DNA of 64,000 nucleotides from Escherichia phage vB_EcoM_JE01, in sequence record PQ471460.1, one strand, 5' to 3'. Position numbers and translations under genes: made by a program. This document shows positions 17,604-43,151 of this stretch, piece after piece. Below the pieces are notes generated by a model. It did not search any database. It was not told the DNA's origin and saw only the letters and a program-made list of their open reading frames with translations. Position 1 is the first letter of the stretch. Each line of letters opens with the position of its first letter.

Positions 17604-17709
17604 ATTGAATTATATTATAGACACTATAAATGATATGATTTTTCATTTTGGTCCAGAATTTTATTCGCAGTATAGTTTAGTACTTATCAATGCTTGGTTA
17701 ATCAATTAA
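17596..17709 (+). CDS. hypothetical small protein (37 aa)
   Basis: Short ORF starting at the nrdG stop; low confidence. Confidence 0.3.
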   Translation: MIKLNYIIDTINDMIFHFGPEFYSQYSLVLINAWLIN

Positions 17710-17717
17710 GGGTAAAT

Positions 17718-24650: not shown

Positions 24651-26335
24651 AGAATTTTAAACTAAACCGAGTTAGGTATCAAAATATAATGTCAGTAGGT
24701 GGAAATCCTATTGACATTCAACTAGATAAGGTTCAAAAAACTCTTATTACTGGACGAAATGGCGGTGGTAAGTCTACTATGTTAGAAGCCATCACATTTG
24801 GGCTTTTTGGCAAGCCATTTCGTGATGTAAAGAAAGGTCAATTAATAAACAGCACAAATAAGAAAGAACTTTTAGTTGAACTGTGGATGGAATATGATGA
24901 GAAAAAGTACTATATCAAAAGAGGGCAAAAACCAAACGTTTTCGAAATCACCGTTAACGGTACACGTCTTAATGAATCTGCCAGCAGTAAAGATTTCCAA
25001 GCAGAATTTGAACAGCTTATCGGAATGTCATACGCCAGTTTCAAACAGATCGTCGTACTCGGCACGGCTGGATATACCCCTTTCATGGGCCTATCCACTC
25101 CTGCAAGAAGAAAACTCGTCGAAGACCTTCTCGAAGTAGGAACATTAGCTGAAATGGATAAGCTTAATAAAGCACTAATACGTGAATTAAATTCACAAAA
25201 CCAAGTGCTTGATGTTAAAAAAGATAGTATTATCCAACAAATTAAAATATATAATGATAACGTTGAACGCCAGAAAAAATTAACTGGTGATAACCTTACT
25301 CGTTTGCAGAATATGTATGATGATTTGGCAAAAGAAGCTAGAACGCTAAAATCGGAAATAGAAGAAGCTAATGAAAGATTAGTTAATATTGTTTTGGATG
25401 AAGACCCGACTGATGCATTTAATAAAATCGGTCAAGAAGCATTTTTAATTAAATCAAAAATTGACTCGTATAATAAAGTCATTAATATGTATCACGAAGG
25501 TGGATTATGTCCAACCTGTTTGTCACAATTAAGTTCCGGTGATAAAGTTGTTTCTAAAATTAAAGATAAAGTTTCTGAATGCACGCATTCGTTTGAACAG
25601 CTTTCAACACATCGTGATAATTTAAAAGTTCTTGTCGATGAATACCGAGATAATATTAAAACCCAACAGTCATTGGCAAATGATATTCGCAATAAAAAGC
25701 AATCTCTAATCACGACGGTAGATAAAGCTAAAAAAGTTAAAGCGGCTATAGAAAAAGCATCATCTGAGTTTATTGACCATGCTGATGAAATAGCACTGCT
25801 TCAAGAAGAACTTGATAAAATTGTTAAGACAAAAACTAATTTAGTAATGGAAAAATACCACAGAGGAATTTTGACTGACATGCTCAAAGATTCTGGTATT
25901 AAAGGTGCTATTATTAAAAAGTACATTCCATTATTTAATAAGCAGATTAACCATTATCTTAAAATAATGGAAGCGGATTATGTGTTTACATTAGATGAAG
26001 AATTTAATGAGACAATTAAATCCCGTGGTCGTGAAGATTTTAGTTATGCTTCATTTAGTCAAGGTGAAAAAGCACGAATTGATATTGCTCTTTTATTTAC
26101 TTGGCGTGATATTGCTGAAAAAGTTTCAGGTGTTAAAATAAGCTGTTTATTTCTTGATGAAGTATATGACGGTGCATTTGATGCTGAAGGTATTAAAAAT
26201 GTAGCTAAAATTTTAGATGGTTTGAAGGATACCAACTTCTTCATAATTTCGCATAAAGACCATGACCCACAAGAATATGGTCAGCATATTCAGATGGAAA
26301 AAGTTGGTAGATTTAGTTTAGCTAAGATTAGCTAG
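24647..26335 (+). CDS. 46: recombination endonuclease subunit gp46 (Rad50/SbcC-like ATPase)
   Basis: 562 aa; Walker A GRNGGGKST, central coiled coil with CPTC zinc hook, Walker B LFLDEV; GTG start. Confidence 0.95.
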   Translation: MKNFKLNRVRYQNIMSVGGNPIDIQLDKVQKTLITGRNGGGKSTMLEAITFGLFGKPFRDVKKGQLINSTNKKELLVELWMEYDEKKYYIKRGQKPNVFEITVNGTRLNESASSKDFQAEFEQLIGMSYASFKQIVVLGTAGYTPFMGLSTPARRKLVEDLLEVGTLAEMDKLNKALIRELNSQNQVLDVKKDSIIQQIKIYNDNVERQKKLTGDNLTRLQNMYDDLAKEARTLKSEIEEANERLVNIVLDEDPTDAFNKIGQEAFLIKSKIDSYNKVINMYHEGGLCPTCLSQLSSGDKVVSKIKDKVSECTHSFEQLSTHRDNLKVLVDEYRDNIKTQQSLANDIRNKKQSLITTVDKAKKVKAAIEKASSEFIDHADEIALLQEELDKIVKTKTNLVMEKYHRGILTDMLKDSGIKGAIIKKYIPLFNKQINHYLKIMEADYVFTLDEEFNETIKSRGREDFSYASFSQGEKARIDIALLFTWRDIAEKVSGVKISCLFLDEVYDGAFDAEGIKNVAKILDGLKDTNFFIISHKDHDPQEYGQHIQMEKVGRFSLAKIS

Positions 26336-27044
26336 GTTTATATTTACAGTTATCATTATGCCATCTTGATAAATTTCCGAAAGTGGTAACTTTACCACAA
26401 TGGACGCAAGTACCAGTCTTTTCAGTTTTCTTGCGTCCATTTGGATTTTTCTTGCAGAAATTTCTATGCGCTGCGATAACGCATTTCTTGCCTATCATTC
26501 CACAGAATTCGCAGGATGTTTCTTCAAGAACGATTGCTTTAAGCCCGTTTGAGATATTATTTCTGTGTTCTTTAGACATTGGTGGTCTAACTTTAGGATT
26601 AGGGTGATTTGGACAGTTATCAAAATGCCAACGATTCATATTCCCGCTTAATCCAGACTTACCGCAATGAGGACAAGTTAGTCTTGCTTTATTAGCTACT
26701 GCATCAGACATTTTCTTTCGTGTCTCCTGGGAGAATTCTTTGTTCTTTTCTATTTCCCAGAGTTTACGACGAATCCAACCGAAAGTTTTATTGTTGCGTT
26801 TAGCGTATTTCGTGGAAACTGTCATCATGTTAGCAGCATAGACTAATTTTGGTTCAGAAGGATAAATTTTTACTAAAAGTTGATGAGCTACATAGTGCTC
26901 TTCTGGCGTTAAATCTACTAAGTTTGAAGCATCATCACTACCGTTTAAACAGCGTGGTATAATGTGATGAGATTCAGTATAGCAATCAAGTTTTCGAGAT
27001 TTAGCATTAGAGATTAACTTTTCATAAATTAGTTTATAATTCAT
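26328..27044 (-). CDS. HNH homing endonuclease (mob-type)
   Basis: 238 aa on minus strand; ...ESHHIIPRCLNGSDDASNLVDLTPEEHYVAHQ... HNH core plus three C-terminal repeats of C-x-H/F-CGK...RWH-x-DNC. Confidence 0.8.
   Translation of the reverse strand: MNYKLIYEKLISNAKSRKLDCYTESHHIIPRCLNGSDDASNLVDLTPEEHYVAHQLLVKIYPSEPKLVYAANMMTVSTKYAKRNNKTFGWIRRKLWEIEKNKEFSQETRKKMSDAVANKARLTCPHCGKSGLSGNMNRWHFDNCPNHPNPKVRPPMSKEHRNNISNGLKAIVLEETSCEFCGMIGKKCVIAAHRNFCKKNPNGRKKTEKTGTCVHCGKVTTFGNLSRWHNDNCKYKPS
26328..27044 (-). mobile_element. free-standing homing endonuclease gene between genes 46 and rpbA
   Basis: Lone minus-strand gene in a + strand operon; HNH family. Confidence 0.6.
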
Positions 27045-27095
27045 AACATATCCTTTTGATACAGCGAGTGATAAACATATTTATACGGAGGAACT

Positions 27096-39596: not shown

Positions 39597-39890
39597 ATGA
39601 AAAAATTTGTTTTTGCTGCAATTTTTGCTTTAGCTTCTTGTGCTGCTCAGCCTGCTATGGCAGGTTATGATAAAGATTTGTGCGAATGGTCTATGACTGC
39701 AGATCAGACTGAGGTTGAAACTCAGATTGAAGCAGATATTATGAATATCGTTGAGCGTGATCGCCCTGAAATGAAAGCTGAAGTACAAAAACAGCTTAAA
39801 TCTGGTGGTGTAATGCAGTATAATTATGTTCTGTATTGCGATAAAAACTTCAATAATAAAAATATCATCGCTGAAGTGGTAGGTGAATAA
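39597..39890 (+). CDS. sp: Spackle (periplasmic inhibitor of tail lysozyme; superinfection exclusion)
   Basis: 97 aa with signal peptide MKKFVFAAIFALASCAAQPAMA; length and position match T4 sp. Confidence 0.8.
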   Translation: MKKFVFAAIFALASCAAQPAMAGYDKDLCEWSMTADQTEVETQIEADIMNIVERDRPEMKAEVQKQLKSGGVMQYNYVLYCDKNFNNKNIIAEVVGE

Positions 39891-40516
39891 TGCTTTATCA
39901 AATGCACAAGTGCAAAGACACGTACAAATATAAAGGTGCCCAGTGTTATATCATTAATCGTGAAAACGCAGGTCCAGGTCATTCGCATCAATCGCGGTTT
40001 GTATTCGTTAAAAACAACGAAATTATAGCAGTTGCTAATTACATGCTTGCGACTAGTGATGTTAATCCGGTGCCTTTCACATATTATAATCTAATGGACT
40101 TGGCGTACGATTATAATTGGTTTAATCATGATAATTTGGCTCATATTGAAGGCGTAGGATTTGACATCTCTTATTCTAGTTACTCGTTGTGTCCTATGAG
40201 CCGAGCTCATAAAGAGCCTGAATATTTTTCATTTCGTCGGCGTGTAGACTTTGAACGCAGCACAGAGTATATCGGTGGAATCTTTGTTAAAGATAATCGA
40301 ATTACTCGCATTATTTATCCTTTGGGCTGTGGTCAAAAAGATATTGATGTTGATTTAGACTTTACTGAAAACATCATTAATCATATTGCTTCTGTGTATT
40401 TTGATATTGATCATAAAATTGTAATATGTGGATATGAATTACCATCAGAAAAACAGTCTAAAGTGAATGTTTCTATTGATGACCAAATTTTTAATGCTTT
40501 TATGAATAGAGGTTAA
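39890..40516 (+). CDS. hypothetical protein (61.2 position)
   Basis: 208-aa ORF. Confidence 0.6.
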   Translation: MLYQMHKCKDTYKYKGAQCYIINRENAGPGHSHQSRFVFVKNNEIIAVANYMLATSDVNPVPFTYYNLMDLAYDYNWFNHDNLAHIEGVGFDISYSSYSLCPMSRAHKEPEYFSFRRRVDFERSTEYIGGIFVKDNRITRIIYPLGCGQKDIDVDLDFTENIINHIASVYFDIDHKIVICGYELPSEKQSKVNVSIDDQIFNAFMNRG

Positions 40517-40684: not shown

Positions 40685-41713
40685 ATGTCATCAATACCTT
40701 GGATTGATAATGAGTTTGCATACCGTGCATTAGCTCATTTACCTAAATTCACACAAGTAAATAATAGTTCAACTTTTAAATTACGGTTTAGATGCCCTGT
40801 TTGTGGAGATTCAAAAACCGACCAAAATAAAGCCCGTGGATGGTATTATGGCGATAATAATGAAGGAAATATTCATTGTTATAACTGTAACTATCATGCA
40901 CCAATCGGAATATATTTAAAGGAGTTTGAACCTGATTTATATCGTGAGTATATCTTTGAAATAAGAAAAGAAAAAGGTAAAAGTCGTCCAGTAGAAAAAC
41001 CTAAAGAACTTCCTAAACAACCCGAGAAGAAAATAATTAAATCTCTTCCGTCATGCATTAGATTAGATAAACTGGCGGAAGACCATCCAATTATAAAATA
41101 CGTAAAAGCTCGTTGTATTCCAAAGGATAAATGGAAATATCTTTGGTTTACAACTGAATGGCCTAAATTAGTTAATAGTATAGCACCAGGAACATATAAA
41201 AAGGAAATACCTGAGCCTCGTCTTGTTATTCCAATTTATAATGCTAATGGAAAAGCTGAGTCTTTTCAAGGACGTGCATTAAAGAAAGATGCTCCCCAAA
41301 AATATATCACCATCAAAGCTTATCCTGAGGCAACAAAAATTTATGGTGTTGAACGAGTTAAAGATGGTGATGTATATGTTCTAGAAGGACCTATAGATTC
41401 ACTTTTTATTGAAAATGGTATAGCTATTACGGGTGGTCAATTAGACCTAGAAATTGTTCCATTTAAAGATAGACGTGTATGGGTTTTAGATAATGAACCT
41501 CGTCACCCTGACACTATTAAACGAATGACTAAATTAGTTGATGCAGGAGAAAGGGTTATGTTTTGGGATAAATCTCCCTGGAAATCAAAAGATGTCAATG
41601 ATATGATTAGAAAGGAAGGTGCAACCCCTGAACAAATTATGGAATATATGAAAAATAATATTGCCCAAGGGCTGATGGCTAAAATGCGGCTATCTAAATA
41701 TGCTAAGATTTAA
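40685..41713 (+). CDS. 61: DNA primase gp61
   Basis: 342 aa; N-terminal zinc ribbon CPVCGDS...CYNC; TOPRIM-like C-terminus. Confidence 0.95.
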   Translation: MSSIPWIDNEFAYRALAHLPKFTQVNNSSTFKLRFRCPVCGDSKTDQNKARGWYYGDNNEGNIHCYNCNYHAPIGIYLKEFEPDLYREYIFEIRKEKGKSRPVEKPKELPKQPEKKIIKSLPSCIRLDKLAEDHPIIKYVKARCIPKDKWKYLWFTTEWPKLVNSIAPGTYKKEIPEPRLVIPIYNANGKAESFQGRALKKDAPQKYITIKAYPEATKIYGVERVKDGDVYVLEGPIDSLFIENGIAITGGQLDLEIVPFKDRRVWVLDNEPRHPDTIKRMTKLVDAGERVMFWDKSPWKSKDVNDMIRKEGATPEQIMEYMKNNIAQGLMAKMRLSKYAKI

Positions 41714-41910
41714 ATTAACCCAACCAAAGCAAATGCTAAATCTACGAATGTATCAAGAGTAATTACTGGAATACTAACGCCATGAGCAATAGCAACTGGC
41801 GATAAAACAAAATTCCAAAGTAAAATTCCTATCATAGCAGAAATAGTAAAAGCTATACGTTTTTTATTACCTTTGATGGCATTAACAAGTGCCATTAATT
41901 TTTGTACCAT
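41710..41910 (-). CDS. small membrane protein on opposite strand
   Basis: 66 aa with two hydrophobic helices; strong SD AAGGAGGA 4 nt before ATG on minus strand. Confidence 0.4.
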   Translation of the reverse strand: MVQKLMALVNAIKGNKKRIAFTISAMIGILLWNFVLSPVAIAHGVSIPVITLDTFVDLAFALVGLI

Positions 41911-41980
41911 ATGTCCTCCTTATTGCTTTATATATTTATTGTATAATTAATCTACTAACCCATGAATTGAAAGGATATAT

Positions 41981-42631
41981 GTGAATTACCAAAAAATTTA
42001 CTCGGCTTTAATTACAAAAGCTAAATGCCGGCATCTTGGTGGATATAAAGAACGCCATCATATAATTCCTAGATGTATGGGAGGAGCAGATGACAAAAAC
42101 AATCTTGTTGAGTTAACTGCGCGTGAGCATTTTATAGCTCATAGATTATTAACCAAAATATATCCAGATGTGAGAGGATTGCATTATGCTGTAAATTTAA
42201 TGCGATATAATAAAGGTGTTAAATTAACAAGTAGATTAATAGAAACCCTTAAAATTCAAAACTCTGTTCTTTTCTCGGGTGAAAATAATCCTAGATATGG
42301 CAAGCCGTCATGGATTAAAGGCAAAAAGACCCCAGAAGAAACTAAAGCCAAAATGCGTCTAGCTCATAAAGGTAAAATTATATCCGATGAAGCCAAGGCT
42401 AATATGAGTAAAGCCCGAAAAGGAAGATTTAGCGGTAAAAATTCACCTCGATATTGTTTACCGAATCCAAGACGTGGTGAGATATGGAATTCGTATGATT
42501 CGCTTTACGAGTTGTGGGTTTATAATAATAGACCTAAGCGCACAAAATTTAATAAAATAGCTGTCAAGGCAGGTTATCCTAATATCTGCTATAGACATAT
42601 GATAGAAAACTTCATAAGAAAGGAAAAATAA
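41981..42631 (+). CDS. HNH homing endonuclease (mob-type)
   Basis: 216 aa; N-terminus ...ERHHIIPRCMGGADDKNNLVELTAREHFIAHRLL... paralogous to 26328-27044; GTG start. Confidence 0.75.
   Translation: MNYQKIYSALITKAKCRHLGGYKERHHIIPRCMGGADDKNNLVELTAREHFIAHRLLTKIYPDVRGLHYAVNLMRYNKGVKLTSRLIETLKIQNSVLFSGENNPRYGKPSWIKGKKTPEETKAKMRLAHKGKIISDEAKANMSKARKGRFSGKNSPRYCLPNPRRGEIWNSYDSLYELWVYNNRPKRTKFNKIAVKAGYPNICYRHMIENFIRKEK
41981..42631 (+). mobile_element. free-standing homing endonuclease gene between genes 61 and 56
   Basis: HNH family; inserted in an intergenic position. Confidence 0.55.
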
Positions 42632-42632
42632 C

Positions 42633-43151
42633 ATGCCACATTTCAACGAATGTAGTCATCTGATCGAAGGCGCTGATAAAGCTCAAAATGAATACTGGGA
42701 TATTCTCGGTGACGAAAAAGACCCGCTGCAAGTTATGCTTGATATGCAGAAATCTCTGCAAGTTCGTTTAGCTAAAGATAAACCTGAATATAATCGTCAT
42801 CCTGATGATTTGGCTACTGCTGGTGAAGTTGTTGATTGGCTGCGTAATCAGAAAGATTATATTGACGATGAATTCCGTGAACTTCTGACATCTCTTGGTG
42901 GTATGAGCAATGGCGAAAAAGATGCATCTGCTGTATGGAAGCCTTGGAAAGCTCAACATGGTGAACGCCGTGAAACTCTAATTACCGATTTGTCTCCGCA
43001 AGACCAGTTGGAAATTAAATTCGAAATGATTGATATTCTTCATTTCGTTCTGAACATGTTCCAAGGTCTTGGTCTTACAGCTGAAGAAATCTTTAAACTT
43101 TATTATCTGAAAAATGCTGAAAACTTCGCTCGTCAAGACCGAGGTTATTAA
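42633..43151 (+). CDS. 56: dCTPase/dUTPase gp56
   Basis: 172 aa (MazG-like NTP pyrophosphatase fold) at the gene 56 position. Confidence 0.85.
   Translation: MPHFNECSHLIEGADKAQNEYWDILGDEKDPLQVMLDMQKSLQVRLAKDKPEYNRHPDDLATAGEVVDWLRNQKDYIDDEFRELLTSLGGMSNGEKDASAVWKPWKAQHGERRETLITDLSPQDQLEIKFEMIDILHFVLNMFQGLGLTAEEIFKLYYLKNAENFARQDRGY

Follow-up and report, generated by a model that had tools for sequence, protein, structure and literature searches.

The stretch of DNA analysed here, a window of 64,000 nucleotides from Escherichia phage vB_EcoM_JE01 (record PQ471460.1), carries an HNH endonuclease gene and, immediately upstream on the opposite strand, a small open reading frame (ORF) encoding 66 amino acids. 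This arrangement raises the question of whether the small ORF belongs to the mobile element represented by the endonuclease gene or is a phage gene in its own right. Very probably, the two are independent neighbors: namely, a mobile HNH endonuclease gene and a resident, likely late gene for a membrane microprotein that would modulate an envelope protein.

Arrangement of the gene 61–gene 56 locus

According to the ORF listing of this Tequatrovirus window, the locus comprises the DNA primase gene 61 (342 aa; 40685–41713, + strand), the small ORF (66 aa; 41710–41910, − strand), the endonuclease gene (216 aa, with a GTG start codon; 41981–42631, + strand), and the dCTPase gene 56 (172 aa; 42633–43151, + strand), which directly follows the site of the endonuclease insertion. 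The flanking ORFs are identified as genes 61 and 56 because they are so annotated in near-identical phages, and the placement of two divergent ORFs between them agrees with the original prediction. The primase gene and the small ORF are arranged tail-to-tail, with their stop codons overlapping in a palindromic TTAA (41710–41713), and the small ORF and the endonuclease gene diverge from a shared regulatory region of 70 bp.

Signals for transcription and translation were located on both strands of this region. On the + strand, a MotA-type middle promoter (41922–41947), which is predicted in fPS-90, consists of the mot box ATTGCTTTA (41922–41930), an 11-bp spacer, and TATAAT (41942–41947). Its T4 homologue is P(M)16.53, located upstream of gene 56 and with its mot box annotated in the T4 record X01416; in the window, the promoter is predicted to drive both the endonuclease gene and gene 56. 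A terminator-like hairpin followed by a T-run (41873–41905, + strand), annotated as a terminator in fPS-90, is positioned to end primase transcripts. On the − strand, the small ORF is preceded by the Shine-Dalgarno (SD) sequence AAGGAGG (41915–41921), four nucleotides before its ATG (41908–41910), so that the strong ribosome-binding site first noted for this ORF is indeed present.

A horizontally mobile endonuclease gene

Judged by its similarities and domain content, the 216-aa gene is a MobD-like, free-standing homing endonuclease gene of the HNH+NUMOD3 type, which bears out its earlier assignment as a mob-type HNH gene. Its product matches phrog_655 ('homing endonuclease') with an E-value of 3e-59, and tblastn aligned 98% of it with T4 mobD at 34.4% identity (E=1e-26). 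In the Pfam search, NUMOD3 (PF07460) was found in two stretches at 28.5 bits versus a cutoff of 20.4; the HNH domain (PF01844) reached 18.4 bits (E=0.0024), short of the gathering cutoff of 21.4. The motif ERHHIIPR..NN..EH is visible in the protein and aligns with a paralogue encoded at 26328–27044 (− strand), the other mob-type gene of the window and a member of the same PHROG (655). The N-terminal paralogy of these two genes, proposed earlier, was recovered by BLASTP (E=4e-30, 36% identity), with the similarity concentrated in approximately the first 75 residues; the C-terminal halves of the two proteins are unrelated. No PDB relative of the HNH protein was detectable by sequence.

A putative HH..N..H catalytic signature near the N-terminus and NUMOD3 DNA-binding repeats are shared with T4 MobA–E, Hef of phage U5, and HNH+NUMOD enzymes of the I-HmuI type. 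Like the Mob genes, the window gene is intergenic and free-standing, shows presence/absence polymorphism, and has been transferred across genera to one site. Unlike T4 mobD, which maps near nrdD/nrdG, it lies upstream of gene 56, and its product is shorter than MobD. SegF (T4 gene 69), annotated in T4 and VR7, is likewise encoded by a free-standing homing endonuclease gene adjoining gene 56. However, SegF is a GIY-YIG rather than an HNH enzyme, and its gene is found on the downstream side of gene 56; no segF was present in the ORF list of the window. SegF reportedly cuts gene 56 of phages that lack the endonuclease, leading to localized marker exclusion. By analogy, cutting and marker exclusion of the SegF kind are a likely mode of spread for the HNH gene. 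With the site upstream of gene 56 as its homing target, it would pass horizontally from one T-even-like phage to another.

Comparison with the empty site of W143 delimited an insertion of exactly 649 bp (41976–42624, + strand) between the gene 56 middle promoter and the gene 56 SD sequence. The insertion is bounded by two copies of GAAAGGA (41969–41975 and 42618–42624), which provide SD sequences to the HNH gene and to gene 56. A target-site duplication was considered as an explanation of this repeat and rejected, since the repeat represents a ribosome-binding site duplicated by the cassette. The insertion has placed the HNH gene precisely downstream of the MotA-dependent gene 56 promoter and ahead of the ribosome-binding site of gene 56, a position in which it would be transcribed first in the middle transcript that includes gene 56.

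The DNA of the HNH gene is 94–97% identical to its counterpart at the same locus of Mosigvirus AV111 and 88–96% identical to that of Klebsiella Jiaodavirus 15882-3-3, whereas the primase gene, small ORF, gene 56, and soc of these two phages are only 43–83% identical to the window. These nucleotide identities indicate that the HNH gene is horizontally mobile and a recent arrival at its site. It is an instance of the routine homing-endonuclease traffic in T-even phages, to which it adds a clear cross-genus case upstream of gene 56.

Conservation and coding status of the small ORF

The small ORF was matched by tblastn in 692 phage records, and in 685 of these the match was a single HSP with a coverage of at least 80%; the ORF is thus neither absent nor disrupted in close relatives. 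A scan of IMG/VR returned only five close loci. The primase gene is its neighbor in every genome examined, across eight Tevenvirinae genera in which the encoded proteins retain 30–55% identity, and its synteny was traced through Tequatro-, Mosig-, Gapriver-, Jiaoda-, Gelderland-, Kanagawa-, and Moonvirus as well as a distant metagenomic T4-like contig. The neighbor on its other side varies, being gene 56, dam, the HNH gene, a mazG-like gene, or a hypothetical gene. The TTAA overlap of the stop codons is kept in six of the eight genera and is lost in VR7, P896, and KP1079, where the ORF is retained.

T4 itself has an intact but unannotated orthologue (NC_000866, 17738–17938, + strand), and the annotation is absent from all three T4 records examined (NC_000866, MT984581, and X01416). 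The literature searched on T4 omics, start sites, small proteins, and transposon/CRISPRi essentiality makes no mention of the small ORF, and no publication in the searchable literature was found to document it by transcript, ribosome-profiling, or proteomic data. The gene is missing from the T4 RefSeq reference, one of the three T4 records. Its family is PHROG 2024, the only PHROG matched by the small-ORF product, with an E-value of 1.9e-30 (residues 2–66 on profile positions 1–65 of 65), and orthologues of this 'RB32 ORF030w' type are annotated as hypothetical in hundreds of T-even-like genomes.

Patterns of variation identify the small ORF as a genuine protein-coding gene under purifying selection that is resident in the Tevenvirinae. 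In its own frame, the pN/pS ratio is 0.17, lower than in any of the other five (0.27–1.16); in Gaprivervirus, the same frame is again the lowest, at 0.30. Within Tequatrovirus, 8, 3, and 15 variable sites fall on the first, second, and third codon positions, respectively, and indels are in frame. Estimates of dN/dS range from 0.1 to 0.4, with synonymous sites saturated between genera. Across the eight genera, the ORF keeps its ATG, its SD sequence, a length of 60–69 aa, and the motifs W-N-F/Y, P, G, P, and D/E, and an SD sequence precedes it in every lineage examined. Its length by itself carries no significance, since ORFs of 60–63 aa arise by chance on nearby non-coding strands of the ORF list; it is conservation that sets the small ORF apart.

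Two readings would deny the small ORF the standing of an independent gene. One, in line with the original suggestion of mobile-element cargo, takes it to be carried by or functionally coupled to the HNH gene, for instance as an exclusion or addiction peptide. The adjacency of the two genes, their divergence from a common regulatory region, and the recurrence of this arrangement in Mosigvirus AV111 and the Klebsiella Jiaodavirus are consistent with such a link. However, the large majority of genomes with the small ORF have no HNH gene: junction probes placed it next to the HNH gene in only 28 records, next to dam in 180, and next to gene 56 in 322, the last figure including records bridged across the HNH insertion and thus corresponding to approximately 294 empty sites. 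In W143 the order is gene 61, small ORF, gene 56, and in T4 it is gene 61, small ORF, dam, gene 56; ELT1 has the small ORF with dam plus the HNH gene. Alleles of the small ORF are independent of the presence of the endonuclease gene, as W143, which lacks it, is 98.5% identical to the window and fPS-90, which has it, is 92% identical. Across genera, small-ORF DNA is 43–55% identical to the window, compared to 88–97% for the adjoining HNH gene, and the insertion boundary is situated 58 bp beyond the small-ORF start codon. A gene that is found without the endonuclease in hundreds of phages, and beside which the endonuclease is a recent horizontal arrival, is extremely improbable as its cargo. The other reading, in which a chance ORF in a regulatory spacer owes its conservation to DNA or RNA signals, is very improbable. 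It could appeal to the primase hairpin within the 5′ end of the small ORF, to the chance ORFs of similar length nearby, and to the omission of the ORF from the three T4 records, while the absence of an Rfam match at the locus is neutral in this regard. Nevertheless, the pN/pS minimum falls exactly in the small-ORF frame, variable sites are distributed by codon position, protein similarity persists where synonymous sites are saturated, and start codon, SD sequence, length, and motifs are all maintained. In addition, the hairpin is not conserved outside Tequatrovirus, for which reason the primase terminator was rejected as the cause of the conservation.

Predicted expression, topology, and role of the small-ORF product

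A late-promoter-like box, AATAAATA (41933–41940, − strand), lies 22 nt upstream of the small-ORF ATG, within the 11-bp spacer that separates the mot box from TATAAT on the + strand. Rather than matching the T4 late promoter TATAAATA perfectly, the box is its A(−13) variant, which is the commonest natural late-promoter variant, occurring in 9 of 50 T4 late promoters (PMC2988020). T4 late promoters are marked by a −10 box of the TATAAATA type, which stands about 6 nt ahead of the RNA start and needs no −35 element, and a box of this type is found upstream of the small ORF. Among nine lineages, seven have a NATAAATA box 12–22 nt upstream of the small-ORF ATG within otherwise unrelated sequence, and the Melville and CF1 lineages have only TATTAAATA; in T4, the box GATAAATA (approximately 17709–17716, + strand of NC_000866) is a candidate late promoter. 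ATAAATA occurs 7 times in the window versus 40.5 ± 5.7 expected, a six-fold depletion, and five of the seven copies are positioned 22–33 nt upstream of an SD sequence and start codon, including those of soc and gene 49. T4 early and middle transcripts are all of one polarity (PMC2988020). Given that this polarity is opposite to that of the small ORF and that the NATAAATA box is conserved, the small ORF is most likely transcribed late only, which would be carried out by gp55/gp33/gp45-RNA polymerase. The primase hairpin sits antisense in codons ~5–13 of the small ORF, and from this position the primase 3′ UTR is predicted to be antisense to almost the whole small ORF. Past the end of the small ORF, no terminator-like site was predicted on its strand, and the late transcript probably continues antisense into gene 61.

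The AF2 model of the small-ORF product (pLDDT 78) contains helices at residues 2–12, 16–42, and 52–63, in agreement with the hydropathy profile. The product had been described as a two-helix membrane protein; its membrane character is upheld, but only helix 16–42 is long enough to span the membrane, the C-terminal helix 52–63 being short. The N-terminus forms an amphipathic helix with a KGNKKR basic cluster, and five basic residues precede the transmembrane helix and two acidic residues follow it. The model suggests a single-pass inner-membrane microprotein of N-in/C-out orientation, in which the basic N-terminus would be cytoplasmic and a tail of ~24 residues with a conserved HG..P..(D/E) motif would be periplasmic.

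Searches for a known family returned nothing in Pfam (E≤0.1), PDB sequences, or Rfam, and no homology was found to Imm, Sp (Spackle), RI, holins, or other characterized families; in related loci, a separate gene for a Spackle homologue lies ahead of the primase gene. The exclusion peptide suggested originally is neither favored nor disfavored by these searches. A HMMER profile search of 1.84 billion representatives recovered only proteins of 44–72 aa, which were either members of the family, fragments, or one of four distant relatives with matches to phrog_2024, with no relatives outside small phage proteins. A Foldseek search of BFVD with the AF2 model returned only orthologues, one of them labeled 'Holin' without evidence, and noise, a small helical model of this kind being uninformative for fold search. 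The T6 label 'putative head morphogenesis protein' was dismissed as noise, since the notes of the same record attach wrong products to adjacent genes, such as 'ferredoxin' to the dCTPase. In architecture only, the product resembles E. coli MgrB and AcrZ and T4 Imm and RI, proteins of similar size (about 50–100 aa) that share a basic cytoplasmic N-terminus, one transmembrane helix, and a short conserved extracytoplasmic tail but have no sequence or fold homology to it; moreover, Imm is an early protein, whereas the small ORF is predicted to be late. By analogy with such bacterial and phage microproteins, the small-ORF product most plausibly acts as a late modulator of an envelope protein, that is, it would bind a larger envelope protein late in infection and modulate it, and the process affected might be the timing of lysis, its inhibition, or late exclusion.

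Two other roles were weighed against modulation of an envelope protein. A holin, pinholin, or other lysis effector would fit a small, hydrophobic product with a late-type promoter; furthermore, the OE5505 orthologue is named 'Holin' in UniProt, the KP1079 orthologue is annotated as 'putative holin', and distant members of the family have sub-threshold matches to phrog_11161 (E=0.012) and GTA_holin_3TM (E=0.1). However, these database labels come with no stated evidence, no significant match to a Pfam or PHROGs holin family was obtained, and a single helix of the AF2 model is long enough to span the membrane. The gene is, moreover, always adjacent to the primase gene, with no endolysin, spanin, or holin among the annotated neighbors in the loci examined, and holin T, endolysin E, the PseT.3/PseT.2 spanins, and RI/RIII already explain T4 lysis; together, these points make a lysis effector quite unlikely. 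Alternatively, the locus may act mainly at the RNA level, with late antisense transcription into gene 61 and an early primase 3′ UTR antisense to the small ORF forming an excludon-like switch that would shut down the primase late, the peptide being secondary. The convergence of the two genes, the TTAA overlap in six of eight genera, the lack of a predicted minus-strand terminator-like site downstream of the small ORF, and the position of the + strand terminator beyond the whole of the small ORF are all compatible with such a switch. Purifying selection at the amino acid level shows, however, that the protein itself matters, and the small ORF is kept in VR7, P896, and KP1079, where the overlap is lost, so that a primarily RNA-level function is possible but somewhat unlikely.

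The preferred reading remains that of a mobile endonuclease gene beside a resident gene for an envelope-modulating microprotein. A more far-reaching and, on balance, unlikely proposal is that the small ORF is an unstudied T-even late gene whose single-pass microprotein has a specific envelope role, for which an accessory of the holin T/RI system of lysis inhibition and a late block to superinfection are candidates, and whose convergent, stop-overlapping layout with the primase gene may also act as a late antisense switch on gene 61. The small ORF represents a strongly conserved, apparently late membrane-microprotein gene in roughly 700–900 T4-like genomes. Annotating it in T4 would be cheap, and screens that start from annotated genes, whether proteomic, CRISPRi, or transposon-based, would then cover it. 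A role in the control of lysis or in exclusion, if true, would be of moderate interest for phage biologists.

A resident small gene beside the primase

In this T4-like Tequatrovirus phage, whose plus strand is equivalent to the T4 reference's complement strand, the gene 61 primase (40685-41713, +) is followed by a 66-aa ORF on the minus strand (41710-41910), a 216-aa HNH gene with a GTG start (41981-42631, +), and the gene 56 dCTPase (42633-43151, +). Phages 95-99% identical to the window over 1.5 kb around this finding include GRNsp7, fPS-90, and IME340. These coordinates, together with an AAGGAGG motif seen by inspection 4 nt upstream of the small ORF's ATG, agree with the original prediction of an HNH gene between 61 and 56 and an opposite-strand ORF with a strong Shine-Dalgarno (SD) sequence; that description is therefore accurate, and the observation is confirmed.

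The small ORF is kept in relatives, being matched by tblastn in 692 phage records, 685 of them with a single HSP of at least 80% coverage. It adjoins the primase in opposite orientation in Tequatro-, Mosig-, Gapriver-, Jiaoda-, Gelderland-, Kanagawa-, and Moonvirus, as well as in a distant metagenomic T4-like contig, while its other neighbor differs (56, dam, the HNH gene, a mazG-like gene, or hypothetical genes). A palindromic TTAA (41710-41713) provides the TAA stop of both convergent genes in six of eight genus-level groups, with equivalents at the related-phage loci L005, L016, L022, L023, and L024. The ATG and the SD are retained, as are a length of 60-69 aa and the arrangement basic cluster - TM - W(N/D)(F/Y)..P..A...G..(L)P....(D/E). 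Nei-Gojobori dN/dS ranges from 0.1 to 0.4, synonymous sites having reached saturation in comparisons between genera. Among Tequatrovirus sequences, the coding frame has the lowest pN/pS, 0.17, as against 0.27-1.16 for the remaining five, and the VR7/P896 pair ranks the frames identically. By these sequence criteria, the small ORF is a genuine resident gene, with selection clearly acting on its protein. It belongs to a hypothetical protein family already known in databases, PHROG 2024 (no assigned function); Pfam, PDB, and Rfam searches gave no match, and when 1.84 billion representative proteins were searched exhaustively with a profile, only nine were returned (44-72 aa), comprising family members, four distant relatives matching phrog_2024, and fragments.

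Several variants were observed. The Gapriverviruses VR7 (L006, ~2200-2380) and P896 (L007, 2194-2304) carry a second, divergent paralog (..FLWNLLVVPIAATQGVHLPQVT..) between the first copy and the primase; it lacks a proper stop in VR7, continuing into the antisense strand of the primase, and is truncated in P896, and seems to be a tandem duplicate undergoing decay. The T6 start codon is ATT, not ATG (L010, NC_054907, 2001-2003), OE5505 (L009) has lost three codons of the TM helix in frame, and ECCR664 (L008, 1963-2150) has a frameshift that may be an assembly error.

An independent mobile endonuclease

The HNH gene matches phrog_655 'homing endonuclease' (E=3e-59), has NUMOD3 repeats scoring above the Pfam cutoff and a sub-threshold HNH domain match, and shares 34% identity with T4 MobD across 98% of its length; it is an ordinary mob-type element. 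Its proposed N-terminal paralogy with the minus-strand HNH gene at 26328-27044, also a phrog_655 member, held up (36% identity, E=4e-30), the likeness lying mainly in the N-terminal ~75 residues. Set against phage W143, in which the gene is missing, the window shows an exact 649-bp insertion (41976-42624) bordered by GAAAGGA, a repeat providing ribosome-binding sites to both the HNH gene and gene 56. Upstream is a MotA-type middle promoter (mot box ATTGCTTTA at 41922-41930, 11-bp spacer, then TATAAT), homologous to T4 P(M)16.53 ahead of gene 56; the endonuclease gene has therefore settled at the head of the middle 56 transcript. In AV111 (L021, 1819-2991), the HNH gene and gene 56 are annotated as a single 1173-nt CDS, either a real fusion by stop-codon loss or an annotation error.

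The suggestion that the small ORF is cargo of this element is refuted by junction counts and cross-genus identities. Junction probes, used to count arrangements next to the small ORF in phage records, placed it beside the HNH gene in 28 records, beside gene 56 in about 294 (the 322 counted, less records bridging the insertion), and beside dam, as in T4, in 180. DNA identity to the window in Mosigvirus AV111 and Klebsiella Jiaodavirus 15882-3-3, respectively, is 94-97% and 88-96% for the HNH gene versus 69% and 64% for the primase, 55% and 43% for the small ORF, 80-83% and 73-76% for gene 56, and 61% and 57% for soc, a contrast that carries the sequence signature of horizontal homing-endonuclease transfer into one target site. 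The pairing of the two genes is coincidental.

Putative late promoters and possible antisense transcription

In T4, early and middle transcripts are all of one polarity, with either strand used only by late transcripts, and the late promoter is an 8-bp TATAAATA box whose commonest variant has A at -13 (9/50 sites) (PMC2988020). A late-promoter-like AATAAATA box (41933-41940, -) lies 22 nt upstream of the small ORF's ATG, within the spacer of the divergent middle promoter. T4 has GATAAATA 21 nt upstream, in sequence otherwise unrelated to that of the window because dam is inserted there; the box is AATAAATA in Mosigvirus and CATAAATA in Gapriver-, Jiaoda-, and Kanagawavirus and the metagenomic contig, being present in 7/9 lineages 12-22 nt before the ATG. 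Transcript polarity and this conserved box suggest that the small ORF is expressed late.

Across the window, the heptamer ATAAATA is about six-fold depleted (7 copies versus 40.5 +/- 5.7 expected; 383, 14812, 27078, 40312, 41933, 43186, and 53282); TATAAATA occurs 4 times versus 10.4 expected and AATAAATA twice versus 14.2. For five of the seven, an SD and start codon follow 22-33 nt downstream; the genes concerned include soc and 49 (endonuclease VII), both known to be late, and the other HNH gene. The latter (238 aa, 26328-27044, -; to 27085 with its box), between gene 46 and rpbA, has a perfect TATAAATA (27078-27085, -) 33 nt upstream of its ATG and is therefore probably late-transcribed, unlike the middle-promoter-driven HNH gene at 41981. 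Another perfect TATAAATA lies 25 nt upstream of an SD-preceded 70-aa ORF (415-627, +; 382-627 with the box) of phrog_1826, which has no assigned function, a candidate for another small late gene. Downstream of the copies at 40312 (-) and 53282 (-), no SD-preceded ORF of at least 25 aa begins within 60 nt, and these two are candidate antisense late promoters; the former is antisense inside a 208-aa ORF (39890-40516; 61.2 by synteny).

Convergent antisense transcripts could add a regulatory layer at the primase and small ORF. A terminator-like hairpin for plus-strand transcripts (41873-41905) lies within the small ORF's first codons, so the predicted primase 3′ UTR is antisense to almost the whole small ORF; conversely, minus-strand prediction gives no terminator beyond the small ORF, and its late transcript probably extends antisense into gene 61. 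However, the hairpin is not kept beyond Tequatrovirus, and selection on the protein is clear.

Predicted product and annotation

An AlphaFold2 model of the protein (22-sequence alignment, pLDDT 78) has helices at 2-12, 16-42, and 52-63. The anticipated two-helix membrane protein is thus borne out as to a membrane helix, but of the three helices the middle one alone has the length to span a membrane, and the hydropathy profile concurs. Five basic residues before this helix and two acidic residues after it predict an N-in/C-out topology, with a tail of ~24 residues in the periplasm. Our best guess is a late inner-membrane microprotein modulating a larger envelope protein.

Two database entries label the protein 'Holin', but neither homology nor genomic context supports this. 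T6 RefSeq NC_054907 names the product 'putative head morphogenesis protein', and its notes cite 'ferredoxin' for dCTPase and 'terminase small subunit' for the soc-position gene; its product names and notes are unreliable and should not be propagated. The T4 ortholog (NC_000866, 17738-17938, +) lies between gene 61 and dam in a 310-bp gap left unannotated, and annotation of the small ORF is absent from three T4 records (NC_000866, MT984581, and the 1984 record X01416). The small ORF deserves annotation in T4.
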